A stretch of DNA of 64,000 bases, taken from Marsupella aquatica (taxonomy: Eukaryota > Plantae > Marchantiophyta). The notes below the pieces were generated by a model, which worked only from the letters and a program-made list of their open reading frames with translations, was not told where the DNA came from and searched no databases. The DNA lies in contig OZ316893.1 of the NCBI GenBank assembly GCA_973895155.1, forward strand, positions 24,169,520 to 24,233,519, read 5' to 3'. Of this stretch, positions 3,050-32,057 are shown piece after piece. The translations under genes and the position numbers were made by a program. Each line of letters opens with the position of its first letter. Positions within the stretch are counted from its first letter, which is position 1.

Positions 3050-3872
3050 GTGGCTATCATACCCGTTCGCGATGGGGCTGTCCGTCTTGTGGTGGCAAGA
3101 AATGATAAAGCTACAGTTTTGGAGAGATCAAAAATTCTTGGGTGTTTCTTTGAGAAGAACATGAAAGTTAAAGAGTGTACAGAGGGATTGGTTTTGCTAG
3201 TCAGCGACGACCAGCAGGAAGACAAAATAAGCATTTGTTTGGATCAAACGCAATATGTAACCTTCAATCAACCCAGAATCGATGATCTTCTAGGTGCAAA
3301 GCACGCCTTGGAAAAGGTTACTAGTGTGGGATATCCTTCCGATCCAGAGGGATCAACGGGAGATTTGATTTGTCAATACATTATTGACGTACTTGAGTTC
3401 CAGAGAGTTCCTTTCAACCAGGGATTTCGCTTGGGAAAGGCCCCGCCAGTAAGCAAGGTTGAAGTATACTCGGTGGAGAATCTTCCGAAAGTAATTACCT
3501 CAGCGAATGTCAGGGCTCTGTTTGATTCTTTCCTCAAAGAATATAGTGCTGTGAATATATTTAACAGCAAGTCATTTTTTGTTGAGACATCACATTGTCA
3601 TCTTGCACCGGACCACATCAAGTGCCAAGAGTGGAATCAGGATTACACAGATAGGCTAAAGAATTCACTCCTCTCTCATTCGGCTATAAAGTTTGAGAAG
3701 CGATGCTGCTTTTTAGTCCCTGTGAAGTGGGTTCAGTCGGAGGCCGACAGAGATCCCGACTACAATGGGGCGCCCTACGATTCATCGCCAAAGGAGGAGG
3801 ACATTATGACGTCATTTCTGGATACTCGGAGGCCAGCACACAATAATGACGTACAAATTGCTGAGAGAGGAC
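3050..3872 (+). pseudogene. 5' part of the transposon cargo gene, cut by the Gypsy insertion
   Basis: ORF 3050..3988 runs into the LTR at 3873. Coding-like sequence resumes after the second TSD at 19500. Confidence 0.6.
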
Positions 3873-6800
3873 TGTGGTGCGTCCCATGGCTCCCTAAACC
3901 CAAGAAACCCCCCAGCTCAAGCCGATTCCCGCAGGTTTCGTGCTTGGCGAGGCCGTTTCCGCGGCTTAGCGGCATGGGACGCTGCTAACCTTCTACTACT
4001 ACTATTAACATTTTACACACATATACTGGACAGATCCTTCATCGGGTCATGAGATACGTAGCCGGCCTAATATAGGCCTTCCCCTGTCTTCCCCTGTCTT
4101 CCCCTCCGTCTTGTTAGGTATGTTTGGATTCTGCCGCCGGAATGATCCCCAATAGGCTTGGTTAAGCCGCTAAGACCTCTCTCAGCTCGACACATCCAAC
4201 TCTCACTCCCCTGCTTACTTTCCTTCCTTCTGTTGATGTGGGCACTCTTCACACAAGTTAATGCGACACACAAATAGCAAAATGACTCATTCTGACTGAG
4301 TCATACCATGCACTTGCCATACAAACAGTACATCTCATACACAAGTTCTGCGAACTAAGCCGTGAGGCCAACTCTATTCAGCTCTTAGGCATGAGGAAAC
4401 ATGAATATACACAAGGGTCACTGTATGACTAACCGAGAGCTTCTCGTACTACTTGATCCCAGCCCGGCTGGTGCAAACTAAAAACTTGCTAAAGAAGAGG
4501 CCCTGAGCTCCCCGCTGCCCAGGTACTTATCCTGGTAGTGGATCCGCCATTCTTTGCATCGTAAGCCTAATCTACTTAACAGTAATCTACTTGCCCGAAT
4601 CTACCTATGTACAGCAAGGCAGGAGCACAAGTGTTGCTCCTACCAGTGGGACCGCAATCCCACTAAGCTAAGTGTCAGGGCCGCTCCTGGTTCTGATCCT
4701 AATCCTAAACGTGGAGATCCGTGCCCGCCCTGCCCACTCACGCCTCCTCCCTCCACGTCCGCCCTCCCTAAAAGGAACGGCGCCCTTGCACCGTCACGAC
4801 ACCGGTGGTGGATCCTCAATGGACGCCCCCAACACTTCCTCCTCAGCCACTGCCGTTGGCCCGCCTACTGACAGATTACCTGCCCTTGACCGAGTCAACT
4901 CTCCATCGGCCTGACTGGGTCCACCTTCGGCTTCAGCCTCGACACCGGCCTCGGCAATACCCACGGCTTCGGCCTCAGCCACTCCCACGGCTTCGGCCTC
5001 AGCCACTCCCACGGCTTCGGCTTCAGCCACTCCCACGGCTTCGGCTTCCCCTTCCCCTAGGGTAGTTGGATCCTTAGCCGTGACCCTGTCTGGGGTCGGT
5101 GCTGGGTCTACCTCCTTGATCACCACGGCCTGTGAAGTCGTATTACTCCTTGACCCTGAAGGTTTCCGCTTCTTCTTCGTTGGTGGCTCGGCAGCTGGTC
5201 CCTTCCCCTTCCCACTTACTTCCGGCACTGGTGCAGGTGGCGCGGCTTGTCCTTCGGCAATTACCACCCCTGGTAACTGGTTTGTCCCAACAGGAGATGG
5301 ACCTGCTGCAGCTAAGCATTTAAATACTGCGGCTTGTTTCTTCAGCCGCTCTGTTTGGTTGTCGGCCCGCCGCTGTAGGTTCTCCATCTTCCTCGTGATT
5401 TCCTCCAACTCCTCTTGGGTTTCATCCAGGTCCTTACGTGCCCCCTCCAGCTCGTTTTTGGCCTCCTCCTGCTCCCTGTGGGCTTCCTCCAATTCCTTCT
5501 TCAAGGTAGCCTTCTCCTCCTGGGTTGCTCTTAGCTCCTTGTCGAGCTCTACAATGATGACAGACTCCATCTGGTTCATCTTGGCGTAAGTCTGTTCGAG
5601 CATCTCGTCCTTCTCCCTTAGGTCGGCCTTGAAGCTGGCCGTCAGGGACGCAAGCTCCTGCTGCAGCGCCATAATCCCTTGATAGGATTTCCCTAACTCG
5701 ACCTCCTTCTGCTCAAGGGCTCCGCGGATTTTCTCGAGCTCCCCTTTCAACGCCCATTCCTTTCTTTGGGTCTCCGCCATGGCCCGGCTGTTGGCTGTTA
5801 TGTGGGCCTCCTCTGTATTCTTCAGCTCTTGCTTCCACTTTTCCCTTTCTTTGATCGTGTCGGCCAACTCTTCCTGCGTCTGAGTCAGTTTATCCTTGAT
5901 ATTCTGATTATCAGCCTGCGCGGCGTCCAACTGCCCCTGCATGATGTTCAGCTCATGTCGTTTAATCCGCAGTTCATCTTGGGCTTTCTTGGCCGCCCTT
6001 AGATCTTCAATCTCGGCTTCCATCCTCCTAAGCCGCCGAATGACCTCGTCCTTCTTGCTTCTCTCTAAAGCCACCGCTTCTTCTAATTGGTGCTTCTCCA
6101 ACTGCTCCCTATGGAAAAAGGGTCCTACCTCCAACTCCTCTCCAAAGATGCCGAGCGCAAGTTCCCCACACATCTCACCATACTCCATGGCTCTATTCTT
6201 AGCGTAGGTGGAGTAAGTAGAAGTGATCGGCATCGCCCATCGTGGCCTCTGCTCCCAAGCTGTCCTGCGGATCTCTTCAATTGTGGCTAGAGGTTTGCTT
6301 CCTTTTTCGGCTAGCCGCCTGATGTCCTCCGGCCAATCTCCTCCTGGTAAATCCTTTTCCTTAGCCAGGGCGGCCTCTTCCTCCTGCTTGATTCGCTCCT
6401 GAAATTCCTGCACCGTCTGTTTTATGCCGTCGAAGCTCGGGGGAGCAACATCTGGTGGGGGAGACTCAGGGCTACTCTGCTGGTTGGGGTCCCCTCGCAC
6501 TACCCTTGGAAGTGTGGGGACAAACCGGCCACAGGTCCTTACTCCTGGAACGTGATGGTCCGACCCATAGCCGGAATTATCATGGCTGCAGTCCTCCACT
6601 GCCTCCTCTACCTCTTGGACGTCCGGCTTCTCCCTCTCCTCTTCGTTGGTAGGAGCTTCAGGCAATTCTGCCTCAGATTCGGAGCTTGAGGTTCCCACGT
6701 ACATTCGAACACCTGGCTTGGATTCCGGCCTGATTCTCTCCTTGTCTCCAGCAAAGGGGTTTTCTCTTGTGAGCCGGTGTAGGCCTACCTCTGTAGTAGT

Positions 6801-8559
6801 GTCCTGCATTGTTGCCGTTGCCGTTGTTGTTGTTGCCGATGCCGATTTCTTTTCTTTCTCCAGTAGTTTCAGCAGACTCTGCATGCCTGGTTGCTGCATC
6901 GGCAAGTCTTCCTTCCTGGGCCTAAACACCTGCTCGATCGTAGGACTAACAGGTGGTTGAGGCTTCTCAGCCAACGGCCTCGGCGTTGGAGCTTCCTCGG
7001 GTGCCCTTACCTGCAGGGGAAGTACCGGGGCAAAAGTCTGACCTCTGGCATACCGGCATAACAGCGGCATGTGATAGCCAAGCCGCGACACGCTCCCCAT
7101 GCAGATTACCTGCTGCTCCTCCTTTAAGATCTTCTTCAATTGGTTGAGGAGGTACCCGTTGTAGTCCCGGCTTGGGTCTGGCCTTTCTGCCAGATAGACC
7201 TGTGCCTTGCCGATCTCTGCCCTCGGCAAGTTACAATGCATGGTCACCCGCAAGAAGTCGATCATCTCTCCTATGTGCGGGTTGGTGCAGGTGTTCCGGA
7301 AGAAGCCATTCTTCGTTGATGGCCCGGGGAACGACCGGAACTCCTTGTCAGGCAAGGTCTTCCTGGTATCAACTTTGGTCTTATTGCCCATCGGCAAGCC
7401 AAACACTTCGGCAATCACCTTGGGAGTAAGATAGAAATCCTTCCCATATATCCTCGTGCAATTGGTCTCGGGTTCCCATGACCCCACGAATTCTAATAGG
7501 TCTGACTCCGGTACCTCCGGCTTCAGCCATGGTAATCTTACAAAGGCCTCCAAGCCGGATCCGGCCATGAAGCCTTGGTACTTCTTGGTCTGCATGGCCG
7601 TAAAGCATGCATCCTCCTCCCGTGCAAAATGTAGTTGCACCTCCACCGGTAGGGTTGCCGCCCAGCCCTTCCAGGTGTCATCCCTGGTTGGAATGGCCTT
7701 GATGGGATCGACCTCCTCCTCTTCGGCTTCTCCCTGCCTCCTGCTCTGCTGCTCGGCTGGCTTCTTTGGTGCCGCCGACCTCGTTCTTTTTGCCGGGGTG
7801 GCTTCATCGTTGACGGCTCCCTTCCTCTTCATCTCTGCTGCCGTGGAGGTTTCTCCTAGCACCGTTGCCCGGGTCCACCTTTCCGTGCTACCCTTTAATT
7901 CCCAGTGTATGTCGTTGCAGTTCTTGATGGCCTCTCAGATGCCGACGACGCTGTCTTTGCAAAACAGAAGATCGTCGAGTTGATTGGAAGTAGGCGTCCA
8001 CAGGAACTCGTCCTTGATGAGTTCGCCTCCTAAGAAAGCCGTCTTCTGCAGCTCCCACAATCGAGCGAGCTCCTGCCGTTCTCGAGCTGCCCTTTCTGAC
8101 TCCTCGTCCTCGTAAGTCTTGATGTACTCAGTTGCCCGTTCGAACAGGCATCCCCAGAAATGTGCCGCTTGATTGACGTTGCTCATACCCTCCTTAGGTT
8201 GATCGTCGGTATCTACTCTCTCCCCGAGTGCTTGCCTAAGCAGCTGACAGTAGTTGGCCTCCCGTAGTCGTCTGCCTAGTTCGTGCTCGCAAATGAGCCA
8301 CCATCTCCTGCAAGCGCTCCTTACCCCTCTCCTCTGCCGGTCCTTCTTCCCGTTGATCCTTCCTAGCCGCCGACGCTTAACGCGCCCTAACCCTAATCGG
8401 GTTTTCACCCTCAGCCTTACCTCCGGCCTCTGCCCGGGTTCCATGGTTGCCCCTAATTGTTTATATTTTCCTTGTTTTGTCACTATACTAAGGTGTTCCT
8501 AGGGTGCCTTCCTGCTTTACCCACTTAACCGGCCGAGTGATTCCTGTCTAGGCATCACA
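3873..8559 (-). repeat. 3' LTR, 4687 bp
   Basis: Direct repeat of 14784-19494 with termini TGTGGTGC...GCATCACA; adjacent to the PPT. Confidence 0.97.
4794..8483 (-). pseudogene. 3'-LTR copy of the LTR-embedded gene, with one premature stop
   Basis: Same as ORF 15705..19418 except for a few substitutions, one fewer 24-bp repeat, and CGA>TGA at 7935-7937, which splits it into the 182-aa and 1022-aa ORFs. Confidence 0.9.
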
Positions 8560-11500
8560 TAGCTCCCCACTTAATTGTGAAGCGTCCTCGCGAACAACTT
8601 CATCTTCGTCCATATAGTATTTCTTGAGGCGGTCATAATGGATGCGAACTGGATATACCTCTCCCGTAATGTTGGCCAATTGTACGGAGCCATTGGGGAA
8701 CATCATGGTTACTCTAAAGGGTCCTAACCAGCGAGTGTAAAGCTTCCCTGGAAACCTACTATACCTACTGTCATAAAGTAACACAAGATCACCGGTATGA
8801 ATACTAACTACTTTTAACCTTTTATCATACTGCTGCTTCATGATATTCTGTCTATATTCTACTCTCTCGGCTGAAATCATTCTCGCTTCCTCTAAAGCTT
8901 CTAACCTATATTCTCGCTCCTTTAGGCTCTCCTCCGCTGAGGCTCTTTCCTCAATTGTAACTTGAAATGTCGGTATCTCAAGTTGCATGGGTACCAGGGC
9001 TTCTTGTCCAAAGGTTAAGAAGAAGGGTGTATGACCGGTAGTGGATTTATAGGCCAGATTGTAAGAAAAAACAGCAGCAAACAATTTATCATCCCAATCG
9101 AGTTTGTTCTGAGCTACTGTCTTGTTCAATATCTTTCCTATGATTCCGTTTGCTCGTTCTGTCAACCCGTTTGCCTTTGGATGGTAGGGAGTAGTAGGCC
9201 TATGTTTAACTAAATACTGCTCATTTAAACGACTAATTATATCATTCAAAAAATGGGTTCCTCTATCACTAACTAATTCTAGGGGTGCTCCATACCTGGT
9301 GAAGATCTGCTCATACATGAATCTAGCCATAGTAATTGCATCATCCTTCGTTGTTGGTCTGGCCTCTACCCATTTAGTTGCATAATCCGTAGCCAGGATT
9401 ATGTACTTGTTCCGTCGAGGGTGGGTCAGTGGTTTCAGAGGTCCAATGTAATCAATACCCCACTTCTCGAATGGTGCCAGAGGTAGAATAGGGTGCAGTG
9501 GATGCCTGGTGGACGCCCTTGGTCCTCCCGCTCGTTGACAAGGATCGCATTGTTTGATAAACTGATAGACATCCTTGTGCAAGGTGGGCCACCAGTAACC
9601 GGCATTTAATATTTTCTTAGACGTGGTTACTGGGGCAAAATGTCCTCCGGCCTCCTCTCCATGCATGGCCCGTAGGACTCGTTTTACCTCTCTCTTTTCC
9701 AAACACCTTTGAATCGTGCCGTTGATTCCATGCTTGTGCAGTATGCCTTTAATGCACTGATACTGTCTGACCTTCCGCACAAAGACTGCGGCTTGCTCTC
9801 GGCTTAATCCTGGCTGTAATCTGGAAGTGCTGAGAAATTGTAAAATCTCAGGGTACCATGTACCAGCTATTTCCACAACGAATAGCTCCTCATCGGGGAA
9901 TCGATCATCGATGCAATCCGTGGCAGGTTTACCTGTGATCCTTGAAAAGAAGTCGGCATTGGCATGTAACTTTCCCGGCTTGATCCTCAGCTCATAGTCA
10001 AACTCCTGTAATAGCAAAATCCATCTTGCTACTCTGCCTGTAAGGTCCGGCTTATTGACTAGGTACTTCAAACTTTCATGATCAGTATGAAAGATTACCT
10101 TGTACCCTAGTAAATAATGCCTAAACTTTTTACAAGAATAAATGACTCCTAATGCTTCTCTTTCCGTGGTAGAGTAGTTCCGTTCGGCATCGGCAAGCTG
10201 ACGGCTTGCGAAGTATATGGGATGGTCCCTTCCTTTCTCATCCAACTGACTTAGTACTGAGCCAATACAGAAGCCCGAGACATCTACAAAAACATGAAAA
10301 TCTTTGTTCCAGTCCGGTGCTATCATGACTGGGGCCTCTACTAACATCTGCTTCAATTCTACCACCGCTGTGACTCGTTCGGGTGTGGGTTCGAAGTCTG
10401 CTCCTGCCTTGAGCATATTGGTTAATGGTAAAGCCAGCTTGGCAAAATCCTTGATGAACCGGCGATAGTAACCAATGCATCCCAAGAAGGATCTTACATC
10501 CTTTATGTTCTTAGGTTGCATGATATCTAGCCATACTGCTAGCTTACCTTTGTCAATCTCAATGCCCTTCCTTGATACCTTGTGACCTAGTAGCACCCCC
10601 TCGGTTACTGCAAAAAAACATTTATCTGGGTGTAACTTGAGACCCACCTCCCTACATCTCATGAAGGTTTTCCTGAGGTATTTAGCATGTTTCGATGCCT
10701 TCCCGAATACTGCAAAGTCATCAATGAAGATTTCCATGAACTTTCTCAAGTAATCATGAAAAATGTTCACCATTAATCGTTGGAACATAGCTGGTGCGTT
10801 GCAGAGTCCAAACGGCATACGATTGAAGACATAGATCCCCCATTCCGTGATGAAGGCCGTCTTGATTTGGTCTTCCTGTCGAATCCTGATTTGGTTATAA
10901 CCAGAGTATCCATCCATGAATGAATATAGTTCATGACTGGCTACCATGTCTAGTACCATATCAGTAAACGGTAAAGGAAAATGGTCTTTTAATGTTGCTT
11001 CATTCAGCTTCCTGTAATCCTGACAAACCCGGATCTTGGGTTTACCATCGGGTCCAGCTTTCTTGGGAACTATCACAATTGGAGACACCCAGTCTGAATG
11101 CAGGACTGGAGTGATGAATCCAGCTTCCACTAGTTTGTCGATTTCTGTTTTGACCAGCAGGGAATACTTCGGGTTCATCCTTCGAATTGGTTGTCGAAAT
11201 GATTTGGCTCCTAACATGAGATCAATTCGATGTTCCCCTAGTGTTGGATCTACTCCCTTTAGATCTTGGTGACTCCATGCAAACACATCCTGAAATTCAA
11301 TCAATAAGTCACTGATCTCTTTCTCGAGCTCAGGTGCTAGGTTTCTCCCTAAGTTCAGTTCTCTTCCCTCTCCTAAGTCGAGCTTCCGATATTGCCGTGC
11401 TTGGATCATATTAATCTGCTTCTTCAAATTCGGGTCCAGTTCGGCTTCCAGTCTCTCTAATCTCATACCTCCATAAACTGGGATCTCGGCTGGACTAGCC

Positions 11501-11814
11501 GAGTCGGTCCCTTCCTTGGTGTCCATAGATTGTCCCCTTACCGGTCTATTCAGTCTTGAATTAGTGGCCGGCTCCCCTTCCTGCCTTGGCTCTGGATCGT
11601 GTCTGTCCATCTCATCCACCTCTTGCTCCTGAGAGTTAGGCCGCTGTGCTCTCTCGGCTTCTAATAGGGCCTCAATTTGTTCTGCCCTCGTAATCGGCTT
11701 GTATGCCGATCCCTTGGTATTTAATTCCTTGCCGATGATCGATGGCGTTGTGGACCCCGTCGGCTCTGCCACAACGCCTGCAGAAAATCCACTGTCCCTG
11801 CTACTGCTCCCCAC
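8548..11814 (-). CDS. pol: Pol: reverse transcriptase, RNase H and integrase
   Basis: RT: DYRKLN, MPFGLCNAP, FIDDF. RH: DVSG, EALG, TDH, NADFFSR. INT: HHCC zinc finger, IDY/SDRG/NGLTER DDE and WLGPF. The stop codon lies 12 nt inside the 3' LTR. Confidence 0.95.
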   Translation of the reverse strand: MGSSSRDSGFSAGVVAEPTGSTTPSIIGKELNTKGSAYKPITRAEQIEALLEAERAQRPNSQEQEVDEMDRHDPEPRQEGEPATNSRLNRPVRGQSMDTKEGTDSASPAEIPVYGGMRLERLEAELDPNLKKQINMIQARQYRKLDLGEGRELNLGRNLAPELEKEISDLLIEFQDVFAWSHQDLKGVDPTLGEHRIDLMLGAKSFRQPIRRMNPKYSLLVKTEIDKLVEAGFITPVLHSDWVSPIVIVPKKAGPDGKPKIRVCQDYRKLNEATLKDHFPLPFTDMVLDMVASHELYSFMDGYSGYNQIRIRQEDQIKTAFITEWGIYVFNRMPFGLCNAPAMFQRLMVNIFHDYLRKFMEIFIDDFAVFGKASKHAKYLRKTFMRCREVGLKLHPDKCFFAVTEGVLLGHKVSRKGIEIDKGKLAVWLDIMQPKNIKDVRSFLGCIGYYRRFIKDFAKLALPLTNMLKAGADFEPTPERVTAVVELKQMLVEAPVMIAPDWNKDFHVFVDVSGFCIGSVLSQLDEKGRDHPIYFASRQLADAERNYSTTEREALGVIYSCKKFRHYLLGYKVIFHTDHESLKYLVNKPDLTGRVARWILLLQEFDYELRIKPGKLHANADFFSRITGKPATDCIDDRFPDEELFVVEIAGTWYPEILQFLSTSRLQPGLSREQAAVFVRKVRQYQCIKGILHKHGINGTIQRCLEKREVKRVLRAMHGEEAGGHFAPVTTSKKILNAGYWWPTLHKDVYQFIKQCDPCQRAGGPRASTRHPLHPILPLAPFEKWGIDYIGPLKPLTHPRRNKYIILATDYATKWVEARPTTKDDAITMARFMYEQIFTRYGAPLELVSDRGTHFLNDIISRLNEQYLVKHRPTTPYHPKANGLTERANGIIGKILNKTVAQNKLDWDDKLFAAVFSYNLAYKSTTGHTPFFLTFGQEALVPMQLEIPTFQVTIEERASAEESLKEREYRLEALEEARMISAERVEYRQNIMKQQYDKRLKVVSIHTGDLVLLYDSRYSRFPGKLYTRWLGPFRVTMMFPNGSVQLANITGEVYPVRIHYDRLKKYYMDEDEVVREDASQLSGELCDA
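8560..8573 (-). promoter_or_regulatory. Polypurine tract (PPT)
   Basis: TAAGTGGGGAGCTA immediately precedes the TG of the 3' LTR on the minus strand, inside the integrase reading frame. Confidence 0.85.
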
Positions 11815-12740
11815 TTAGCCGTTTCATCCAATTGGTCTACATCCTTAACTTCCTCCGGAATTGCAGCTAAAAAGGTGGATTCTATTGTAAAGCAGTCCTT
11901 GACCTCTTCGTCTTCTTCTTCCAAGTCACCTTCCATTGGTTCTTGCCATAATCCGCTGGGGGGTACCTCTGGTCCAAAGACACCTTCTTCGGTTAGGTTA
12001 GTGAAGCATTCTAACCAACGTACTTCATCGGCTGACTCCAGTCCACTATCGTACCCATCTACTTCCCTTATGCTTTTCCTACGGTCATCCTTAGTGTCCC
12101 AGGATACCGTGATAGAGGGGGTCCCGAAAGTGAATTGCTTTTTACCCCAATCTTCTATTACCTCGGCTAGGTACAGCCATGGCCTACCAATCAATAGCCG
12201 GAATGACGTAGGATTTACCGGCTTCATTACTACATAGTTAATGCTAAAGAAGATACCTCCTATCTCTGTCTTGATGCCGGTTAACACTCCCGTCGGAATG
12301 ACCTGATATCCATTGGCCATGTTCAACACTCTTCCAGTCATCTCCGGTGTTAGACCCCACCCTTTTGCTGTTGAATCAATCATAATACATACCCCTGATC
12401 CTCCATCGATGGGTACCCGTAGTAATAATTCTCCTTGAATCATTAATGGTAATGCTGGGGCTCCTTGATCTTCTTCTATCATTAGTACGTCGGATCTGGT
12501 TGCTACCTTGGGTAATCTCGGCTTGCCGAGAATAGCCTTCCTTAATTGCTTCCGGAAGTACGGGCTATTTTTCAATAGTTGACCTACTGTTGCCGAGACT
12601 CTAGATTCTAGTACATCTTTAGCCAGGTCATAGGGAACAATCGGCTTCTCTTCTGGTGGTGTTTCCGTCTTGGATTCGGCCAGTTTTGCCACGCTAGTCT
12701 CCACAGCTGTTGGGTCTTCCGAAGCAAACAATGCTTTTGC
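11721..12740 (-). CDS. Aspartic protease region, in frame with gag after a single TGA
   Basis: VPIDGGSG active-site motif and LLIGRPWL. Same frame as gag: GTA AAA TGA GCA AAA GCA TTG. Confidence 0.85.
   Translation of the reverse strand, partial: AKALFASEDPTAVETSVAKLAESKTETPPEEKPIVPYDLAKDVLESRVSATVGQLLKNSPYFRKQLRKAILGKPRLPKVATRSDVLMIEEDQGAPALPLMIQGELLLRVPIDGGSGVCIMIDSTAKGWGLTPEMTGRVLNMANGYQVIPTGVLTGIKTEIGGIFFSINYVVMKPVNPTSFRLLIGRPWLYLAEVIEDWGKKQFTFGTPSITVSWDTKDDRRKSIREVDGYDSGLESADEVRWLECFTNLTEEGVFGPEVPPSGLWQEPMEGDLEEEDEEVKDCFTIESTFLAAIPEEVKDVDQLDETAKWGAVAGTVDFLQALWQSRRGPQRHRSSARN
11731..11790 (-). promoter_or_regulatory. Predicted -1 ribosomal frameshift signal (slippery heptamer plus pseudoknot)
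   Basis: G GAT TTT in the protease frame (11784-11790), a 5-nt spacer, then a perfect 10-bp stem GGCGTTGTGG/CCACAACGCC. Loop GCCGA can pair with downstream TCGGC. The pol ORF is in the -1 frame and open across this site. Confidence 0.75.
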
Positions 12741-14714
12741 TCATTTTACATCCTTGGCAATGGCTTCGGTATTCTCCAGGGTTTCTAATTCTCTTAGTTG
12801 TTCCTTAACACTAGCCGTAACAGAGGGGTAGAACAACTTAGGATGATCTCGATTGAAGTTGCTATCTTGTGAAGGATTGGTTTCACTGGTGGGCTCATGG
12901 CTTACCTGTATTGCCGGAGCCCTCCCTTCTCCTTCTGTTGATGTTGACGAAGAGTCGATCCTTTCCTCCGTAACCTTCCCTTTATTTTTGGCTAGCCCAT
13001 CCCACCTTTCCTTCCTTCTGGTAGATCGAGTAGAGACCCGGTAGCAATCATGATCTAAATCCTCCTCTGAGAAGGTTGATAGGGCTTCGGCCTCATCATC
13101 AGATGGTACGAACTCTGCCTCGGCATCCTCTTGCCATCCTAGTTCGATGTGGTTGATTTGAACTCCTCCGGGGGTAGTACCTGGCGGTAAGATCTTGATC
13201 GGCAAAAGCTTATGATTTGCGGCCAGGCCTGCCAACCAAGTAGGACATTGCCCTAGCATATGACCTTCCTGTCGGCATCCCATACATAGCTGAGCTGGTT
13301 GTCCATCACCCTGTTTGCGTGCATTCGGGCATTCTCTAGCAAAATGGCCAGGTTGACCACAATTATAGCACGCCGCAAATCTTTGCACATTCGGCCTAGG
13401 AGGTACTGACGGGTTCTGAATAATCCAAGGATACATCTCTCTTGGATTGTTCCTTAACCCTGACCACAGAGATGCAGGTCTGTTGGATAGGTCTCGTGCT
13501 CCAGTCTCACTGATGCCGAAAACACTATCAGCGGCATCTCCCAAAAAGTACTCTACTTCTCCCTGACATGGTCTGATCTCGGCCACATGCCGAACATGAT
13601 TAGTATTAAGCTTAGGACAAGCATCTTTATGGTGTCCGGTTTTATAACATAAGGCACACCATACAGAGCTATCCTCCTGTACTACCTTCTTCTTTGGTTT
13701 TACCTCTGCAATGATAGCCTTAAGTTGCTCGGTAAGGGCTACGATGTTATCTGGTGGCTTAGCCTCCATCTTGACTTTCGTCTTCCCTCTCCTTCTGCCC
13801 TTCCTTTTCCTAGTTTTTTCTTCTTCAGAACTAGAAGATGACTCACTCTTGCTACTTCCACTATCCGAGCTTGACTTATCACTTCTAGACTTCTTGGAAT
13901 GTTTCTTCTTCTTATCTTTTTTCTTATGGGGTGATCTCTCCTCTGATGAGGAACTCTCAGACTTAAGCTGTTTCTTCCGGCTTGTGATATCTGCATTAAT
14001 GTATAATTGAATATCCTTAATTGCTTCGGCTAAGGTCTCCGGGTTCTCCTTCCTAATTGCAAAACTCATCTTCTGTGGCAAAGCATTCACCAACCATTGA
14101 AGTTGCATACCTTCAGATGCATTGGTCTTTGTACGTCTTACCAATTTCTGAAAGCGTTGCAAGAACTTCCTGAAGGATTTGTTCTCCTTGAACCGAAGTT
14201 GTCCCAACTTCAGCACTGCTAGTTCTGAAGTTCCAATGGGTCGAAACTCCTTAACAAAGAGTGTTTTGAAGATATCCCAGATGGCTTGATCTTCCACATC
14301 TAATGCTCTGTACCAAGGCCTAGCCTCACCCTTGAACAGGCCGGGAAGAATCTGCATCTTGATGGCCGATTCTCCATTTGCTGCAGCGGTTCCCTCGAAA
14401 TCATCCAACCATTCGTCCGGATCCTCATCTCCTCTCCCATGAAATGCCTTGTAATGTATGCGCGACCGCTGGCTCAATCTGGTTCCTGGCCTCTCGTCTG
14501 GCCGTGCCTCTGGTTCCCCCATGTCGGTTGGAGACTCACTTCTCCTTACCGACTCTTCTTCTGGTATGTCTTCTTCGACGCCACTTCCAGTTTCGGAGCT
14601 ACCAGCTCTTTCTGCCCCTCTCAGTCGCTGTGTATCATGCCACCCGGCGAGCTGCTGCAGTCGAGCTCTCTCCCGTTGAATCACTCTTTCTTCCCTCGGC
14701 GTAAGGTCAGTCAT
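12741..14714 (-). CDS. gag: Gag with three CCHC zinc knuckles
   Basis: Capsid-like DPDEWL..GEARPWY..W..FK..F..EF; knuckles CALCYKTGHHKDAC, CYNCGQPGHFAREC and CMGCRQEGHMLGQC; Ser/Lys-rich linker. Confidence 0.9.
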   Translation of the reverse strand: MTDLTPREERVIQRERARLQQLAGWHDTQRLRGAERAGSSETGSGVEEDIPEEESVRRSESPTDMGEPEARPDERPGTRLSQRSRIHYKAFHGRGDEDPDEWLDDFEGTAAANGESAIKMQILPGLFKGEARPWYRALDVEDQAIWDIFKTLFVKEFRPIGTSELAVLKLGQLRFKENKSFRKFLQRFQKLVRRTKTNASEGMQLQWLVNALPQKMSFAIRKENPETLAEAIKDIQLYINADITSRKKQLKSESSSSEERSPHKKKDKKKKHSKKSRSDKSSSDSGSSKSESSSSSEEEKTRKRKGRRRGKTKVKMEAKPPDNIVALTEQLKAIIAEVKPKKKVVQEDSSVWCALCYKTGHHKDACPKLNTNHVRHVAEIRPCQGEVEYFLGDAADSVFGISETGARDLSNRPASLWSGLRNNPREMYPWIIQNPSVPPRPNVQRFAACYNCGQPGHFARECPNARKQGDGQPAQLCMGCRQEGHMLGQCPTWLAGLAANHKLLPIKILPPGTTPGGVQINHIELGWQEDAEAEFVPSDDEAEALSTFSEEDLDHDCYRVSTRSTRRKERWDGLAKNKGKVTEERIDSSSTSTEGEGRAPAIQVSHEPTSETNPSQDSNFNRDHPKLFYPSVTASVKEQLRELETLENTEAIAKDVK

Positions 14715-14760
14715 TACCTACGCTTCCGTTCTAACTTCATATCTCACGGCTTAAGAAATG

Positions 14761-14779
14761 CCCCCTCCATCTAGCGCCA
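14761..14779 (-). promoter_or_regulatory. Primer-binding site (PBS)
   Basis: TGGCGCTAGATGGAGGGGG lies 4 nt downstream of the 5' LTR end on the minus strand. The primer RNA was not identified. Confidence 0.8.
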
Positions 14780-15704
14780 AAAATGTGGTGCGTCCCATGG
14801 CTCCCTAAACCCAAGAAACCCCCCAGCTCAAGCCGATTCCCGCAGGTTTCGTGCTTGGCGAGGCCGTTTCCGCGGCTTAGCGGCATGGGACGCTGCTAAC
14901 CTTCTACTACTACTATTAACATTTTACACACATATACTGGACAGATCCTTCATCGGGTCATGAGATATGTAGCCGGCCTAATATAGGCCTTCCCCTGTCT
15001 TCCCCTGTCTTCCCCTCCGTCTTGTTAGGTATGTTTGGATTCCGCCGCCGGAATGATCCCCAATAGGCTTGGTTAAGCCGCTAAGACCTCTCTCAGCTCG
15101 ACACATCCAACTCTCACTCCCCTGCTTACTTTCCTTCCTTCTGTTGATGTGGGCACTCTTCACACAAGTTAATGCGACACACAAATAGCAAAATGACTCA
15201 TTCTGACTGAGTCATACCATGCACTTGCCATACAAACAGTACATCTCATACACAAGTTCTGCGAACTAAGCCGTGAGGCCAACTCTATTCAGCTCTTAGG
15301 CATGAGGAAACATGAATATACACAAGGGTCATTGTATGACTAACCGAGAGCTTCTCGTACTACTTGATCCCAGCCCGGCTGGTGCAAACTAAAAACTTGC
15401 TAAAGAAGAGGCCCTGAGCTCCCCGCTGCCCAGGTACTTATCCTGGTAGTGGATCCGCCATTCTTTGCATCGTAAGCCTAATCTACTTAACAGTAATCTA
15501 CTTGCCCGAATCTACCTATGTACAGCAAGGCAGGAGCACAAGTGTTGCTCCTACCAGTGGGACCGCAATCCCACTAAGCTAAGTGTCAGGGCCGCTCCTG
15601 GTTCTAATCCTAATCCTAAACGTGGAGATCCGTGCCCGCCCTGCCCACTCACGCCTCCTCCCTCCACGTCCGCCCTCCCTAAAAGGAACGGCGCCCTTGC
15701 ACCG

Positions 15705-18700
15705 TCACGACACCGGTGGTGGATCCTCAATGGACGCCCCCAACACTTCCTCCTCAGCCACTGCCGTTGGCCCGCCTACTGACAGATTACCTGCCCTTGA
15801 CCGAGTCAACTCTCCATCGGCCTGACTGGGTCCACCTTCGGCTTCAGCCTCGACACCGGCCTCGGCAATACCCACGGCTTCGGCCTCAGCCACTCCCACG
15901 GCTTCGGCCTCAGCCACTCCCACGGCTTCGGCCTCAGCCACTCCCACGGCTTCGGCTTCAGCCACTCCCACGGCTTCGGCTTCCCCTTCCCCTAGGGTAG
16001 TTGGATCCTTAGCCGTGACCCTGTCTGGGGTCGGTGCTGGGTCTACCTCCTTGATCACCACGGCCTGTGAAGTCGTATTACTCCTTGACCCTGAAGGTTT
16101 CCGCTTCTTCTTCATTGGTGGCTCGGCAGCTGGTCCCTTCCCCTTCCCACTTACTTCCAGCACTGGTGCAGGTGGCGCGGCTTGTCCTTCGGCAATTACC
16201 ACCCCTGGTAACTGGTTTGTCCCAACAGGAGATGGACCTGCTGCAGCTAAGCATTTAAATACTGCGGCTTGTTTCTTCAGCCGCTCTGTTTGGTTGTCGG
16301 CCCGCCGCTGTAGGTTCTCCATCTTCCTCGTGATTTCCTCCAACTCCTCTTGGGTTTCATCCAGGTCCTTACGTGCCCCCTCCAGCTCGTTTTTGGCCTC
16401 CTCCTGCTCCCTGTGGGCTTCCTCCAATTCCTTCTTCAAGGTAGCCTTCTCCTCCTGGGTTGCTCTTAGCTCCTTGTCGAGCTCTGCAATGATGACAGAC
16501 TCCATCTGGTTCATCTTGGCGTAAGTCTGTTCGAGCATCTCGTCCTTCTCCCTTAGGTCGGCCTTGAAGCTGGCCGTCAGGGACGCAAGCTCCTGCTGCA
16601 GCGCCATAATCCCTTGATAGGATTTCCCTAACTCGACCTCCTTCTGCTCAAGGGCTCCGCGGATTTTCTCGAGCTCCCCTTTCAACGCCCATTCCTTTCT
16701 TTGGGTCTCCGCCATGGCCCGGCTGTTGGCTGTTATGTGGGCCTCCTCTGTATTCTTCAGCTCTTGCTTCCACTTTTCCCTTTCTTTGATCGTGTCGGCC
16801 AACTCTTCCTGCGTCTGAGTTAGTTTATCCTTGATATTCTGATTATCAGCCTGCGCGGCGTCCAACTGCCCCTGCATGATGTTCAGCTCATGTCGTTTAA
16901 TCCGCAGTTCATCTTGGGCTTTCTTGGCCGCCCTTAGATCTTCAATCTCGGCTTCCATCCTCCTAAGCCGCCGAATGACCTCGTCCTTCTTGCTTCTCTC
17001 TAAAGCCACCGCTTCTTCTAATTGGTGCTTCTCCAACTGCTCCCTATGGAAAAAGGGTCCTACCTCCAACTCCTCTCCAAAGATGCCGAGCGCAAGTTCC
17101 CCACACATCTCACCATACTCCATGGCTCTATTCTTAGCGTAGGTGGAGTAAGTAGAAGTGATCGGCATCGCCCATCGTGGCCTCTGCTCCCAAGCTGTCC
17201 TGCGGATCTCTTCAATCGTGGCTAGAGGTTTGCTTCCTTTTTCGGCTAGCCGCCTGATGTCCTCCGGCCAATCTCCTCCTGGTAAATCCTTTTCCTTAGC
17301 CAGGGCGGCCTCTTCCTCCTGCTTGATTCGCTCCTGAAATTCCTGCACCGTCTGTTTTATGCCGTCGAAGCTCGGGGGAGCAACATCTGGTGGGGGAGAC
17401 TCAGGGCTACTCTGCTGGTTGGGGTCCCCTCGCACTACCCTTGGAAGTGTGGGGACAAACCGGCCACAGGTCCTTACTCCTGGAACGTGATGGTCCGACC
17501 CATAGCCGGAATTATCATGGCTGCAGTCCTCCACTGCCTCCTCTACCTCTTGGACGTCCGGCTTCTCCCTCTCCTCTTCGTTGGTAGGAGCTTCAGGCAA
17601 TTCTGTCTCAGATTCGGAGCTTGAGGTTCCCACGTACATTCGAACACCTGGCTTGGATTCCGGCCTGATTCTCTCCTTGTCTCCAGCAAAGGGGTTTTCT
17701 CTTGTGAGCCGGTGTAGGCCTACCTCTGTAGTAGTGTCCTGCATTGTTGCCGTTGCCGTTGTTGTTGTTGCCGATGCCGATTTCTTTTCTTTCTCCAGTA
17801 GTTTCAGCAGACTCTGCATGCCTGGTTGCTGCATCGGCAAGTCTTCCTTCCTGGGCCTAAACACCTGCTCGATCGTAGGACTAACAGGTGGTTGAGGCTT
17901 CTCAGCCAACGGCCTCGGCGTTGGAGCTTCCTCGGGTGCCCTTACCTGCAGGGGAAGTACCGGGGCAAAAGTCTGACCTCTGGCATACCAGCATAACAGC
18001 GGCATGTGATAGCCAAGCCGCGACACGCTCCCCATGCCGATTACCTGCTGCTCCTCCTTTAAGATCTTCTTCAATTGGTTGAGGAGGTACCCGTTGTAGT
18101 CCCGGCTTGGGTCTGGCCTTTCTGCCAGATAGACCTGTGCCTTGCCGATCTCTGCCCTCGGCAAGTTACAATGCATGGTCACCCGCAAGAAGTCGATCAT
18201 CTCTCCTATGTGCGGGTTGGTGCAGGTGTTCCGGAAGAAGCCATTCTTCGTTGATGGCCCGGGGAACGACCGGAACTCCTTGTCAGGCAAGGTCTTCCTG
18301 GTATCAACTTTGGTCTTATTGCCCATCGGCAAGCCAAACACTTCGGCAATCACCTTGGGAGTAAGATAGAAATCCTTCCCATATATCCTCGTGCAATTGG
18401 TCTCGGGTTCCCATGACCCCACGAATTCTAATAGGTCTGACTCCGGTACCTCCGGCTTCAGCCATGGTAATCTTACAAAGGCCTCCAAGCCGGATCCGGC
18501 CATGAAGCCTTGGTACTTCTTGGTCTGCATGGCCGTAAAGCATGCATCCTCCTCCCGTGCAAAATGTAGTTGCACCTCCACCGGTAGGGTTGCCGCCCAG
18601 CCCTTCCAGGTGTCATCCCTGGTTGGAATGGCCTTGATGGGATCGACCTCCTCCTCTTCGGCTTCTCCCTGCCTCCTGCTCTGCTGCTCGGCTGGCTTCT

Positions 18701-19418
18701 TTGGTGCCGCCGACCTCGTTCTTTTTGCCGGGGTGGCTTCATCGTTGACGGCTCCCTTCCTCTTCATCTCTGCTGCCGTGGAGGTTTCTCCTAGCACCGT
18801 TGCCCGGGTCCACCTTTCCGTGCTACCCTTTAATTCCCAGTGTATGTCATTGCAGTTCTTGATGGCCTCTCGGATGCCGACGACGCTGTCTTTGCAAAAC
18901 AGAAGATCGTCGAGTTGATTGGAAGTAGGCGTCCACAGGAACTCGTCCTTGATGAGTTCGCCTCCTAAGAAAGCCGTCTTCTGCAGCTCCCACAATCGAG
19001 CGAGCTCCTGCCGTTCTCGAGCTGCCCTTTCTGACTCCTCGTCCTCGTAAGTCTTGATGTACTCAGTTGCCCGTTCGAACAGGCATCCCCAGAAATGTGC
19101 CGCTTGATTGACGTTGCTCATACCCTCCTTAGGTTGATCGTCGGTATCTACTCTCTCCCCGAGTGCTTGCCTAAGCAGCTGACAGTAGTTGGCCTCCCGT
19201 AGTCGTCTGCCTAGTTCGTGCTCGCAAATGAGCCACCATCTCCTGCAAGCGCTCCTTACCCCTCTCCTCTGCCGGTCCTTCTTCCCGTTGATCCTTCCTA
19301 GCCGCCGACGCTTAACGCGCCCTAACCCTAATCGGGTTTTCACCCTCAGCCTTACCTCCGGCCTCTGCCCGGGTTCCATGGTTGCCCCTAATTGTTTATA
19401 TTTTCCTTGTTTTGTCAC
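15705..19418 (-). CDS. Intact LTR-embedded gene: PMD/Athila-extra-ORF-like domain, acidic/Pro linker, long coiled coil, basic NLS-like patch and AEAEAVGV repeats; likely ATG at 19121 (1138 aa)
   Basis: 1237 uninterrupted codons lie wholly inside the LTR. Domain motif LLEFVGSWEPETNCTRIYGKDFYLTPKVIAEVFGLP; E/K/Q-rich heptads; KKKRK; TATAAA at 19395-19400 upstream. Confidence 0.85.
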   Translation of the reverse strand: MTKQGKYKQLGATMEPGQRPEVRLRVKTRLGLGRVKRRRLGRINGKKDRQRRGVRSACRRWWLICEHELGRRLREANYCQLLRQALGERVDTDDQPKEGMSNVNQAAHFWGCLFERATEYIKTYEDEESERAARERQELARLWELQKTAFLGGELIKDEFLWTPTSNQLDDLLFCKDSVVGIREAIKNCNDIHWELKGSTERWTRATVLGETSTAAEMKRKGAVNDEATPAKRTRSAAPKKPAEQQSRRQGEAEEEEVDPIKAIPTRDDTWKGWAATLPVEVQLHFAREEDACFTAMQTKKYQGFMAGSGLEAFVRLPWLKPEVPESDLLEFVGSWEPETNCTRIYGKDFYLTPKVIAEVFGLPMGNKTKVDTRKTLPDKEFRSFPGPSTKNGFFRNTCTNPHIGEMIDFLRVTMHCNLPRAEIGKAQVYLAERPDPSRDYNGYLLNQLKKILKEEQQVIGMGSVSRLGYHMPLLCWYARGQTFAPVLPLQVRAPEEAPTPRPLAEKPQPPVSPTIEQVFRPRKEDLPMQQPGMQSLLKLLEKEKKSASATTTTATATMQDTTTEVGLHRLTRENPFAGDKERIRPESKPGVRMYVGTSSSESETELPEAPTNEEEREKPDVQEVEEAVEDCSHDNSGYGSDHHVPGVRTCGRFVPTLPRVVRGDPNQQSSPESPPPDVAPPSFDGIKQTVQEFQERIKQEEEAALAKEKDLPGGDWPEDIRRLAEKGSKPLATIEEIRRTAWEQRPRWAMPITSTYSTYAKNRAMEYGEMCGELALGIFGEELEVGPFFHREQLEKHQLEEAVALERSKKDEVIRRLRRMEAEIEDLRAAKKAQDELRIKRHELNIMQGQLDAAQADNQNIKDKLTQTQEELADTIKEREKWKQELKNTEEAHITANSRAMAETQRKEWALKGELEKIRGALEQKEVELGKSYQGIMALQQELASLTASFKADLREKDEMLEQTYAKMNQMESVIIAELDKELRATQEEKATLKKELEEAHREQEEAKNELEGARKDLDETQEELEEITRKMENLQRRADNQTERLKKQAAVFKCLAAAGPSPVGTNQLPGVVIAEGQAAPPAPVLEVSGKGKGPAAEPPMKKKRKPSGSRSNTTSQAVVIKEVDPAPTPDRVTAKDPTTLGEGEAEAVGVAEAEAVGVAEAEAVGVAEAEAVGVAEAEAVGIAEAGVEAEAEGGPSQADGELTRSRAGNLSVGGPTAVAEEEVLGASIEDPPPVS
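15838..15982. repeat. 24-bp coding tandem repeat (GGCTTCGGCCTCAGCCACTCCCAC); the copy at ~4927-5048 has one unit fewer
   Basis: Read directly; encodes AEAEAVGV on the minus strand. Confidence 0.9.
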
Positions 19419-19499
19419 TATACTAAGGTGTTCCTAGGGTGCCTTCCTGCTTTACCCACTTAACCGGCCGAGTGATTCCTGTCTAGGCATCACAAGGAC

Positions 19500-28090: not shown

Positions 28091-31000
28091 TGTCACACCA
28101 AAAGTTGCGTCCTGAATTGGATTTTGGTTTAGGCGGCCATAAAATCTGTTAGTATTGAGGTTTGGGCAAGGAGGGGCGTGCGCACAATACTGCATTCCAC
28201 TAACTTGACACTAAATGTGCCCAACCCTATTACTACCCGTATCATAGGTATCATTTGTGTTCCGCCGCCAGAACATACCTCAAATCGATAGCTAGATCGA
28301 GCCCGGCTTAAGGACTTCTAAGCCTTTGTGCTGTCCGCCTCCGATCCATATCCGATAATACGGGCAGCTAACTTGGGCCCAAAACTGCTATCCGCAACCT
28401 ACACCCCATGCACGGCTTGTATAGCACGTTTGGTCCAGCATTCTCTATCCGCACACAAGATGTACAATTGTTAGCATTCACATCATACACGCTTGATTTA
28501 CACAAAGGAAATAGTGGAGAAAAGACTTTTACTTCAGAATCCGTTATGCACATACACATGGTTGACTCGACTTCTTTCGAATACTCAGGCCGAAGGCAAA
28601 GAGGCGTACACTACAACGGAGCCCAGCTCTGCACTTGCCCAGCGAGCTTAGTCGTACCCTCAATCCTTGGAACTTTTATTCAAGAAGGCTGAGACTCCTC
28701 GCACATCATGCGGACACCCAGTTCTGAACCTAAAATCCCCCCCCCCCCCGCTGCCTCTCCTGGGGGTTCACTAAATACTATCTAAGAACCGTGGCCAGGA
28801 GTGGGCACGTGCTCGAATTCTAACCTATGCTAGTCCTAGCTAAACGCCAGTCCGCTAAAACGGCTTGTCATTACCCTAAGATACTACGCTAAAAGGTTGT
28901 TGGCACTGCTCTAACTAGTTCCAGCGCTCGTCGGTAGTATCCTATTCCTACAGCTAAACCTACGCTACTCCAAACTATTGGCGTCGCTTAATGTCTGGCT
29001 TGCTTATTAGATCCGCCCAAGTGAGACTTGGATCGGCCGTCCCGTTGCCTCCTCAGCCGGTTGACGTCTTGCTTGAGGATTTGGACCTGGTCCATGAGAG
29101 AATCATTTTCTCTCTTCACCGCATCCGTCTCTTCCGCGGCTTCCTGGCATGCCTCTTCCAACTGCTGACCATCGCTCGTTAGCTTGGCCACCAGTCTTGT
29201 TTAGTGGCTTCTTGTTGGAGCTGTGCCACCTCCACTTTCAGGACGTCTACCTTGGCGGTATCTTGTTGGGCCCAAGCATTGGCCTCCTCTACGTCCTTCT
29301 ACCAGATTACAGCTTGTACCTTCAAACTGTCAATCTGGGTCTGGAGTTGTGAGATCTCAGCGTCCTTCTCGGCTTCGGCTTGCTCGGCCAGGTTTAACTT
29401 GGCCTTGGTATCGGTGACTTGGGCGAGGGCCGTTGCCATCTGAGGACGGAGAAGCTATAGCTCAGTATCCCGGTGTGCTGCTTTGCCTAAGAGTCTAGCG
29501 GTTTCAACCCGGTACCGCTCAATCTTTGTTGTGGCTTCAGCCTGTGTTCGTCCCGCTTTTACTGCCGCTACCAGTTCCTGGCTAAAGAAGTAGGCTACTT
29601 TGCGGCCATGAACTCCCCCATTTCCCAACGAATTTGTTGGGAGAAGTCCCCTTACTAGCAGCCTGTTCAAATATGTACCCGGTGCCAAGAGTTCCAGGTT
29701 TACTAAGTTGTGCCCGCTCGGGTTCGGGCAAGGGCAGACCTCTACTTGGGAAGAGGCCGGGGTGGTCACGTCTAGCCCGAAGGCAAGATGGCTAGCGGGG
29801 CCAAGGAATTTAGCCAAAGGGTCTACCGGTGTTGGTGTGGAGGGTACCGCGGTTCCCTGATGGCCTCGGGAACGGGGCCGGCTTCCTCTCGCTCAGCAGT
29901 CACTGCACGGTCCTGGTTTTGGCCTCCAGGGTTGCATTCACTGCCGAGTATGGCACCAGCAAAGGTGTCTCAATGGCTTGTGGTGGGGCCGGGGTGTGCG
30001 CTACTGGTGCTGGAGCCCGAGATTTGGGCTGTGGCCGTCGTTCCAGCGCCGGAAAGACCCATTGGAATGGGGTGAGCTTGGGCTCGTTGAGCCGCGGAAG
30101 GGTTTGTCGATCAAAGCGGGTGTACCATTTGATAATAATCTCAATGTGGCTTACGAGGTATGTCTTTCCCCCGAGGTACAGGGTCTTCCTTTGGTACTCC
30201 ATCTCTTCGTGGAACTTCTTGACAAAGAAGGAGGCCCACTTTCTAGGCCAATAGTTCTCAACCTGGATTACCTGGGCTGCGGATATCTCTCCCCGCGGCA
30301 TCATGTGGAGGGCGTACCGTTGGAACTCCAGCCGCTCTGCAATCTCCGGGATGAGGCACGTCCTCATCAGGAAGCCGTTGTCCACCAAACCCTTGGGTGG
30401 GAAGCTTGAAGATTGGTACTTTGCTCCCTTTCCCCCTAGGGCCCGTGACTCCACCCGGTTCTGACCCTCGGGTAGGCCAAAAATGAGCATAAGCTGCTCC
30501 TCATTTAAAGACATTACCCTTCCGTGTGCACAGGTCTAAACTCCGTCATGTCTTGCCCGTAGTACTTGCAAGTGTTCCAAGGGAGGGTGGCAATATGTTT
30601 GAACCCTTGGGTCTTCAGGTACGCTACATGCTTCGGATGGAGGATGTTCTTGTGAACATTCTCCCCCATGCGATGCATTGTTAACTTGGCCACGGCAACG
30701 GTGGCCACGGGTAAACCGGATACTGCAGCCGGCTCCTTCCTCTTCTGTCCCCAAGAGTTTTTCCCAGGATGGCTTGTAGAAGGAGACATCTCCCCGTCCT
30801 CCCTATCTGGTAGGGGTAGCACGACTGCAATCAGAACGGGTGTCGGGGCCGCCACGATCACCGTGTTGTCTATTGGGGCCATCTCTCGGGTTTGGGTTTG
30901 TGTGGACGGCGATGTATTACCCGGCCTGTGTCAATGTGCCCCCGGAGGTCTCCAAACAAGAGGAGGATGAGCCTCCTTGTCCTCTGAGCTGAGGTTCGCC

Positions 31001-32057
31001 GCATTCACCACGGATTGTACCCAAACGGGTGCGGGAACGGGTGGTGCTGCCGATGGTGGAGAGCGGCTTGAATGAGGCCAAGGCGATGTCTGTGATGGCG
31101 CCAATGATTTGGCTATGGGTGTAGCTGGAGGCAGAGCCATAGGATTCAGAAGGTTGGAGGGGAAACTGAGTGAGGCTAGGAGTGACGTCTTGCAAAATTT
31201 GGACTACCGAATCGACAGTTAATGAAGGACTGAACCTTGACTGAACCAACTGATTCCGCTGCAAGTCTATCGTGCCCGGGATCGTGAAGACCTTGTCCGG
31301 AAGTCGAAGGAGCGCTTCCCTGAATTTGAGGTACTTTGTACCATCAAAGAAGAATTCAGCAATCTCGTCGTCTCGATAGAACTTGCTCTGAAACGGGAGG
31401 TTGAAGTTGCCATTGTAGTGAGAGCGCCCGGCTAGACAAATGAGTCGTTCGTAATGTCTTTTGGCTTCGTACCTGCACGGGTTGAATTTGGCAAGCGACT
31501 TTGCTAGATGATTTCCAATGGATAGAAATTGAAGCCAAAAGCGAGGGCCAAACTGGACATAATCATGATAGACACATAGTGTGCAACGGTGAATAACTAC
31601 TTAAGGGGCGAATGGGCGAGCTGGGATCAAAGCTGGCATGAGGAGTGAACTTCTGATACTACACAAGAGAATGGCTTGCCTTTTATACCCTGACGAGTCA
31701 TCGGCCGATCGGCCCTTCCTCCTTTCTGATAGGCCGAGCCTTTCACGCATGTAGTGTACCGGCCACTCTGCAAGTCCAAATCAGGGCGTGTCAAGGAGCC
31801 GCCCCCTCGATCCGTTATACGGACCCGAGGTAGACGTATGTTTATAACGCGCTCGTAACCCAGCCGTACGGGTGGCGCTCCGCCGTCAGCCCGAGCATGA
31901 ATGCTCTTATTGACTAATGTTGTCTTATTCATGATTACTAGAACTACTTTAGTGTCGTTATGCTAATAATTACGGACTACTAATTAAGTCCGTAGTGTGC
32001 GTACTCAGCACGAATTAAGCCGGATTACTCATTACCATCCGTGCTGGCGGCGTCACA
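28091..32057 (-). mobile_element. Solo LTR (3967 bp) of a diverged gene-bearing-LTR family
   Basis: TGTCACACC...GGCGTCACA inverted ends; TSD TAGGT/CAGGT (one C>T). The LINE frame rejoins on removal. No gag or pol inside. Confidence 0.82.
28988..31560 (-). pseudogene. Frameshifted homolog of the LTR-embedded gene
   Basis: TLPW..DMTEF, IFGLP, NGFLMRTCLIPEIAERLEFQRYALHMMPRGEISAAQV align with RLPW..DLLEF, VFGLP, NGFFRNTCTNPHIGEMIDFLRVTMHCNLPRAEIGKAQV. Followed by a Pro-rich linker and coiled coil. Confidence 0.82.

Follow-up and report, generated by a model that had tools for sequence, protein, structure and literature searches.

The stretch analysed here, 64,000 nucleotides of the liverwort Marsupella aquatica (GenBank assembly GCA_973895155.1, contig OZ316893.1, positions 24,169,520 to 24,233,519; hereafter the window), contains a Ty3/gypsy retrotransposon of 15.6 kb (3873..19494) whose two long terminal repeats (LTRs) each hold a long open reading frame (ORF), here termed the accessory ORF. 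Self-comparison of the window gave one long direct repeat, 3873-8559 against 14784-19494, with 99.2% identity over 4711 columns; the two LTRs differ by 14 substitutions and by one unit of a 24-bp tandem array. Judged on their divergence of 0.3% alone, with no rate applied, the insertion is young. The element shows the marks of its class, namely TG..CA LTRs, a target site duplication (TSD), a primer binding site (PBS), a polypurine tract (PPT), and gag followed by reverse transcriptase (RT), RNase H and integrase in that order. On the minus strand, both LTR copies begin with TGTGATGC and end with GCACCACA, inverted at 7 of 8 positions. The PBS, TGGCGCTAGATGGAGGGGG, which we take to be of the tRNA-Arg type, begins 4 nt past the 5′ LTR. 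The terminal PPT box, TGTTCGCG...CTTCAC...AAGTGGGGAGCTA, occurs once in the window, and pol extends into the 3′ LTR, where its stop codon falls at 10-12 nt. The PPT core, TAAGTGGGGAGC, recurs at the protease/RT junction (11806-11817, minus strand), where it may be an internal plus-strand origin. An earlier note on this DNA had drawn the same LTR boundaries and placed a TATAAA and a telo-box-like word near the LTR start; all of these were verified in the sequence.

An open frame of 1242 codons (15705-19433) takes up 79% of the 5′ LTR; the chance of such a frame at the same composition is ~4e-25. The earlier note's ORF of more than 1100 codons in each 4.7-kb LTR is therefore real, and it is intact in the 5′ LTR; the premature stop in the 3′ copy is rare among family contigs. 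An upstream in-frame ATG at 19379, in good context and overlooked in that note, would extend the protein to 1224 aa. Three of the ten LTR differences within the ORF are synonymous and seven nonsynonymous, as expected from drift after insertion. No transmembrane segment was found in the accessory ORF (the top 19-residue hydropathy, 1.1, falls within an Ala/Val repeat); together with KKKRK this supports the previous view that the protein is not envelope-like. Its charged helical stretch, where an ATG16 Pfam match lies below threshold, is probably a coiled coil.

Table 1. Features of the retrotransposon and of a degraded homolog of its accessory ORF. Promoter-like words, the telo-box-like word and the localisation signal are read from the sequence.
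Feature	Position	Strand	Remarks
5′ LTR, TGTG...CACA	14784..19494	-	4711 bp
3′ LTR, TGTG...CACA	3873..8559	-	4687 bp
TSD AGGAC, left copy	3868..3872	+	
TSD AGGAC, right copy	19495..19499	+	
PBS	14761..14779	-	begins 4 nt past 5′ LTR
Terminal PPT box	8560..8596	-	within pol coding end, directly before 3′ LTR
TATAAA	19395..19400	-	candidate accessory-gene promoter; LTR position 95
Telo-box-like word	19320-19332	-	
TATATTA	14979..14985	-	candidate genomic-RNA promoter; 202 nt before LTR end
Accessory ORF from likely start codon	15705..19121	-	1138 aa, 73% of LTR; same sense as gag-pol
Accessory ORF copy in 3′ LTR	4794-8498	-	single premature stop, 7935-7937
Conserved domain	17960..18530	-	~190 aa, mostly helical; predicted VANC21-like fold
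Charged helical stretch	16260..17027	-	42% charged, weak ~3.6/7 periodicity
KKKRK	16098..16112	-	candidate nuclear localisation signal
24-bp tandem array	15880..15990	-	AEAVGVAE units; 3′ LTR one unit shorter
gag	12741..14717	-	Retrotrans_gag, zf-CCHC (Pfam)
Protease-like ORF	11721..12740	-	read by eye; no Pfam match
RT-RNase H-integrase	8548..11814	-	Pfam
Dispersed A[AT]GCCG	3873..19494	.	85 copies; candidate accessory-protein target
Degraded accessory-ORF homolog	28100..32600 (ends approximate)	-	domain ~29900-30700; no gag/pol

Two bodies of data show that the accessory gene is part of the LTR beyond this one insertion, as had been proposed. Part of the LTR was present in 16 of 18 public sequencing runs listed, and six contained at least half of its words. 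Depth was followed over 3600-10200 in four runs, of which X1 and X2 were deep and X3 and X6 were excluded as too thin. ORF bins exceeded pol bins 4.1-fold (X1) and 3.1-fold (X2), and non-coding LTR bins 3.8- and 4.4-fold, ratios that are not copy numbers and whose ranges overlap slightly in X2. In both runs depth steps at each end of the 3′ LTR, and family depth drops ~10- to 20-fold across 19494. The LTR sequence at 16300-19494 of the window is near-identical in runs X1-X7, which bear five organism labels; this could reflect close relatives, mixed samples or transfer.

Among 31 relative loci with an integrase end, obtained from a scan, eight have a terminal PPT box. In seven (L002, L003, L004, L006, L007, L008 and L009) the box directly follows pol and is itself followed by TG and then by a homologous domain; the opposite LTR end at the PBS is visible in three (L003, L006 and L009). 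Because none of the seven shows two whole LTRs, their layout is deduced from the box, the TG, the inverted repeats of LTR start and end (9/9 in L006, 12/13 in L009) and the PBS. L003 runs from pol through the box, a 1082-codon frame and non-coding DNA to the PBS, giving an LTR of ~4.5 kb with a terminal match of only 3-4 nt. L001 is arranged differently: pol is followed by a different PBS-like and purine tract without TG, a 745-codon ORF, the terminal box, a ~1-kb LTR and the PBS. L005 and L011 carry the same type of upstream tract, which in all three (L001:3741, L005:838, L011:3091) resembles the family's own PBS (GAGCCG[CT]TGCC) and is followed by a purine run without TG; it is possibly a second tRNA contact or a plus-strand origin. 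Neither tract follows pol in the remaining 21 loci, most of them more distant or short. Both layouts, with the ORF in the LTR or internal, occur within one lineage. Since the Athila ORF is internal (PMC7264820; 10.64898/2026.03.20.713144), the likelier direction is from an internal site to the LTR, in one or two moves. We regard a location of the accessory gene in the LTR as highly probable. Other retroelements among these loci have long sense ORFs after pol that do not resemble those of the present family (L026:4520-7810, L028:3879-5600 and 6246-8321; 1097, 574 and 692 codons), and broken Transposase_32-like ORFs stand beside Athila-like pols in L025:12280-13120 (+) and L012:3-580 (-).

The pol region has a single RNase H; a Pfam search found neither an additional RNase H nor a chromodomain. 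The gag stop (12741-12743) is in frame with the protease ORF, and protease and RT overlap in different frames (11721-11814), whereas many relatives read from protease to integrase in a single frame; the stop and the frame change could be either lesions of this copy or recoding sites. The closest named pols are those of liverworts (Calypogeia fissa, 64-66% over partial length; at most 56% in Riccia and 47% in Marchantia), and pols from metagenomes attain 53-57% over almost the full length. In a 47-row integrase tree, made from a quick search with midpoint root and no curated references, a 29-row clade (SH-aLRT 99) unites the window element with Riccia and metagenome elements and leaves seven angiosperm rows outside. 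The window element (a long branch), the L001 group, to which Riccia belongs, and the L002-L009 group form one clade (SH-aLRT 99) whose fork is open.

The conserved domain is under purifying selection, in keeping with the earlier reading. In the region 17900-19620, 39 of the best-supported 40 of 215 variant places lie within the open frame, and synonymous variants make up 10 of 12 in codons 255-490, 9 of 16 in codons 87-254 and 2 of 11 in codons 1-86, against an expected fraction of ~0.3. The excess begins only downstream of 19121 and favours this start, the one first suggested, over 19379 (Fisher P 0.01, with 10 of the 11 upstream variants lying within 35 nt and so not independent). Over the whole ORF, 11 of 27 variants are synonymous as against 8 of 10 in pol (best 40 of 1154 places), which suggests that the ORF tail is loosely constrained. 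Among the indels listed (12 of 41), the two deepest inside the ORF in run X1 are of three bases, and three single-base indels fall in the last 25 codons of the ORF. Across relatives, synonymous sites are near saturation while nonsynonymous differences are 0.19-0.38.

The likeness previously seen to either the plant mobile domain (PMD) or Athila proteins divides on closer analysis. A Pfam search of the ORF and of 126 family members gave no match to PMD (PF10536) or Transposase_28, and DUF1985 has no sequence match in the same set. Transposase_32 (PF20167) and ATHILA (PF03078) stay below the Pfam cut-off, with two of the 126 members at E 0.005-0.014; by language-model features, however, they are the nearest named family (Atlas 0.89/0.87 for the window domain; 0.93 for relative P0138, with 26 of 30 matches). 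A 33-column match to a Transposase_32-like piece was also seen, the piece having been picked after the fact. The domain is likely to be distant kin of Transposase_32/ATHILA. Its predicted structure resembles the fold of VANC21 (PDB 9lnk) at 7% identity.

Each VANC protein recognises a short word specific to its family of elements (PMC5735166), and an element-wide word was therefore sought. AAGCCG is the top hexamer over the whole element (32 against 7.7 expected, corrected P 1e-7), followed by TGCCGA and ATGCCG. Outside the element, the remaining 48 kb contain the combined word A[AT]GCCG 26 times, with 11 copies in the degraded homolog. Against synonymous-codon shuffles it is enriched in the accessory ORF (18 versus 5.2), pol (13 versus 3.5), gag (6 versus 2.0) and protease (4 versus 0.9), counts reached by 0, 0, 1 and 0 of 300 shuffles respectively, the word having been chosen from these same sequences. 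A cross-check took the hexamer that ranks first when the LTR is considered by itself: the internal region has 13 copies of it, with 3.6 expected (P 1e-4). In a stricter all-hexamer test the accessory ORF lies above the null maximum and the internal region just below it. The word is absent from flanking repeats of the same host with equal CG number, and no arrays were found in non-coding LTR parts of the window element. Of 16 relative loci examined, L002, L003, L004, L006, L007 and L009 are enriched in CCGG-centred words, L018 and L025 in other CG words (ACGTCA and GCGACC) and L001 in AGCGCT, in non-coding DNA only; no enriched word was found in L005, L008, L011, L026, L027 or L028, and L012 is marginal. 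CCGG reaches 9-30 per kb in most measured parts of pol, ORF and LTR of the six loci, against 1-6 in most of the window. The AGCGCT(A) clusters of L001 (4130-4210, 6740-6810, 7990-8030) are the nearest here to VANDAL-type target arrays. Enrichment would be expected both from selection for binding sites and from shielding of bound CGs against decay, and in the relatives it might stem from host methylation context.

We propose, with moderate confidence, that the accessory gene encodes a protein whose VANC-like domain binds A[AT]GCCG and counters host silencing of the element. The anti-silencing role guessed at in the earlier note thus gains two independent leads, the predicted fold and the element-wide word, and the function itself is a prediction from them. 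The ORF probably lies in the unique 3′ region (U3) of the LTR, since a giant repeat region (R) would leave gag downstream of a long ORF in the transcript and since TATA-like words occur 150-200 nt ahead of the LTR end. Plus-strand synthesis would be primed at the PPT overlapping the end of pol, so that reverse transcription would give both LTRs the 3′ gene copy. Translation from 19121 may use a subgenomic mRNA from a promoter close to the LTR start (position 95), and a second promoter, ~200 nt short of the LTR end, may make the genomic RNA. The resulting protein would enter the nucleus, oligomerise through its coiled coil, bind the family word and keep cognate copies from silencing in trans, with solo LTRs as a further source. 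Because only the 3′ copy would be inherited, progeny of the window insertion would carry the premature stop in both LTRs, and its 5′ gene copy could still serve the family.

A different role for the same kind of protein is improbable but deserves weight. An LTR-borne DNA- or chromatin-binding factor might guide integration or activate the element's own promoters; it would fit the same anatomy, selection, fold and motif data, and function does not follow from a common fold. Transactivation of this kind is known from genes that overlap the LTR in complex retroviruses. For the ATHILA ORF, a recent source gives no assigned function (10.64898/2026.03.20.713144). However, copies of the word are found in coding DNA at a distance from promoters, none lies in the first 373 nt of the LTR, the word contains a CG, and the two characterised members of the fold class, VANC and MAIN/MAIL, both counter silencing (10.1101/2024.09.27.615353; PMC5735166). 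It is equally doubtful that no DNA is bound at all, in which case the VANC match would be a chance helical likeness, the coiled coil a scaffold for particle, RNA or host protein, and the word a mutational or methylation-context bias. As to the transcript, a single promoter near the LTR start could drive a genomic RNA holding the ORF twice, in a giant R. The sole canonical TATAAA is at LTR position 95, and a 2-kb R is annotated in the 3.2-kb Retrosat2 LTR (PMC3485330); but gag would then lie 4.6 kb and one long ORF past the cap, minus-strand strong-stop DNA would reach 4.6 kb, and TATA-like words occur at -202 in the window and at -153 in L009 (TATAAAA), so that we consider this arrangement unlikely. 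That the locus is a recombinant or tandem artefact of a family with short LTRs and an internal ORF, exactly the layout of L001, is largely refuted and very improbable, given that TSD, TG..CA, PBS and PPT agree with the long repeats, that two runs show depth steps where the long LTRs end, that no second PPT box lies past the ORF, and that seven relatives have the same layout.

The degraded homolog lies 9 kb from the element (tblastn, 29% over 189 aa, E 5e-11) and retains remains of the coiled coil and an intermediate A[AT]GCCG density (2.4 per kb); no convincing TSD was found at 28100..32600. It is a candidate old solo LTR or sister-family fragment. This gag- and pol-less homolog and the depth ratio above 2 are consistent with solo LTRs. 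A PBS-like GAGCCGTTGCGGGGG at 32540 and an additional open frame (30917-31600) are also present. The element itself is inserted in a repeat (window 1-3872 and 19495-26724) with its own enriched hexamer, GCCTCC; some of its frames we presume, by eye, to be Mutator-like, SWIM-like and Ulp1-like, and three are NIF-phosphatase-like (25786-26724 matches PF03031, E 6e-14). Host genes on the plus strand include a cytochrome P450 (32861-33724) and an MBD9-like chromatin gene with PHD, MBD, FYR, DDT and WHIM domains (55126-64000). Further repeats, at 45414-46081, 35446-36036 and 51465-51954, comprise an inverted pair of 197 bp (90%), a direct pair of 99 bp and a degenerate tandem array.

More broadly, we tentatively suggest, at somewhat less than even confidence, that an old non-seed-plant Ty3/gypsy lineage moved a VANC-fold anti-silencing gene into U3, making each insertion or solo LTR a cassette of promoter, gene and target words, that each family rewrote its whole genome, coding DNA included, with its own word, and that Athila-type extra ORFs, PMD and VANC form one DNA-binding anti-silencing superfamily that predates eudicots and resides in retrotransposons. 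For the function of Athila-type extra ORFs, the element supplies a protein together with a candidate fold and a six-letter word as its candidate target. Solo-LTR recombination, the usual route by which hosts disarm such elements, would leave an LTR-borne gene whole, and surveys restricted to extra ORFs of internal regions would miss it.

A gene within an LTR has a retroviral precedent in sag of mouse mammary tumour virus, which lies in U3 and is likewise doubled at each insertion; the proteins are unrelated, the window ORF is ~3.5 times longer, and its carrier is a plant retrotransposon. Long-LTR plant elements such as Retrosat2/RIRE3 (PMC3485330) and Ogre and other OTA elements (PMC6317226) share LTRs of 3-5 kb and an extra ORF, although in published descriptions their extra ORFs are internal and their long LTRs regulatory. 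In the literature covered, mostly outside subscription journals, we found neither a plant retrotransposon with an LTR-internal gene nor a VANC-like factor encoded by an LTR element. The LTR-borne accessory gene is real and lineage-wide, and was not found described for plants. Unlike Tat/Ogre/Retand, the window element has no additional archaeal RNase H, and although its internal region is filled by gag-pol as in the short Phygy/Selgy elements, which lack an extra ORF, it measures 15.6 kb and has a long one.

The window element shares with the Athila clade a non-chromoviral pol without additional RNase H. It differs in its PBS, Athila using a tRNA-Asp/Asn type (TGGCGCCGTTGCC) that four of the 31 relatives carry, in a pol clade separate from angiosperm Athila in the quick integrase tree, and in having the extra ORF after the PPT rather than between pol and PPT, the Athila layout that L001 fits. 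The Athila 3′ extra ORF (PMC6317226, PMC11728184, PMC7264820) and the window ORF are both in sense orientation after pol in a non-chromovirus lacking the archaeal RNase H; they also share a coiled coil (probable in the window ORF), a nuclear localisation signal (a candidate in the window ORF), the PF20167/PF03078 likeness by language-model features and, in some relatives, the Athila-type PBS. The window ORF, of 1138 aa, is set apart by lying inside the LTR past the PPT, and hence doubled. With the plant mobile domain (MAIN/MAIL1/MAIL2; Ogre PMD), of which retrotransposon-borne forms exist, it shares a W..ET...GLP-like stretch, but it has no PF10536 match, and Ogre PMD ORFs are internal, in elements with an additional RNase H. 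PMD proteins are reported to have the VANC fold (10.1101/2024.09.27.615353; PMC13547354), and the latter source proposes that VANC arose in dicots through capture of a MAIN-like host gene, an origin on which a VANC-like fold in a liverwort-type retrotransposon would bear. Whether LTR elements encode VANC-like factors has been asked (PMC12844716). Compared with VANC21 of VANDAL21 Mutator-like transposons (PMC5735166; PDB 9lnk), the window gene belongs to an LTR retrotransposon of a non-seed plant, its function is a prediction, and its candidate target word is scattered over coding sequence, whereas that of VANC21 forms arrays in non-coding DNA; the two systems share a short family-specific motif enriched in their own element.
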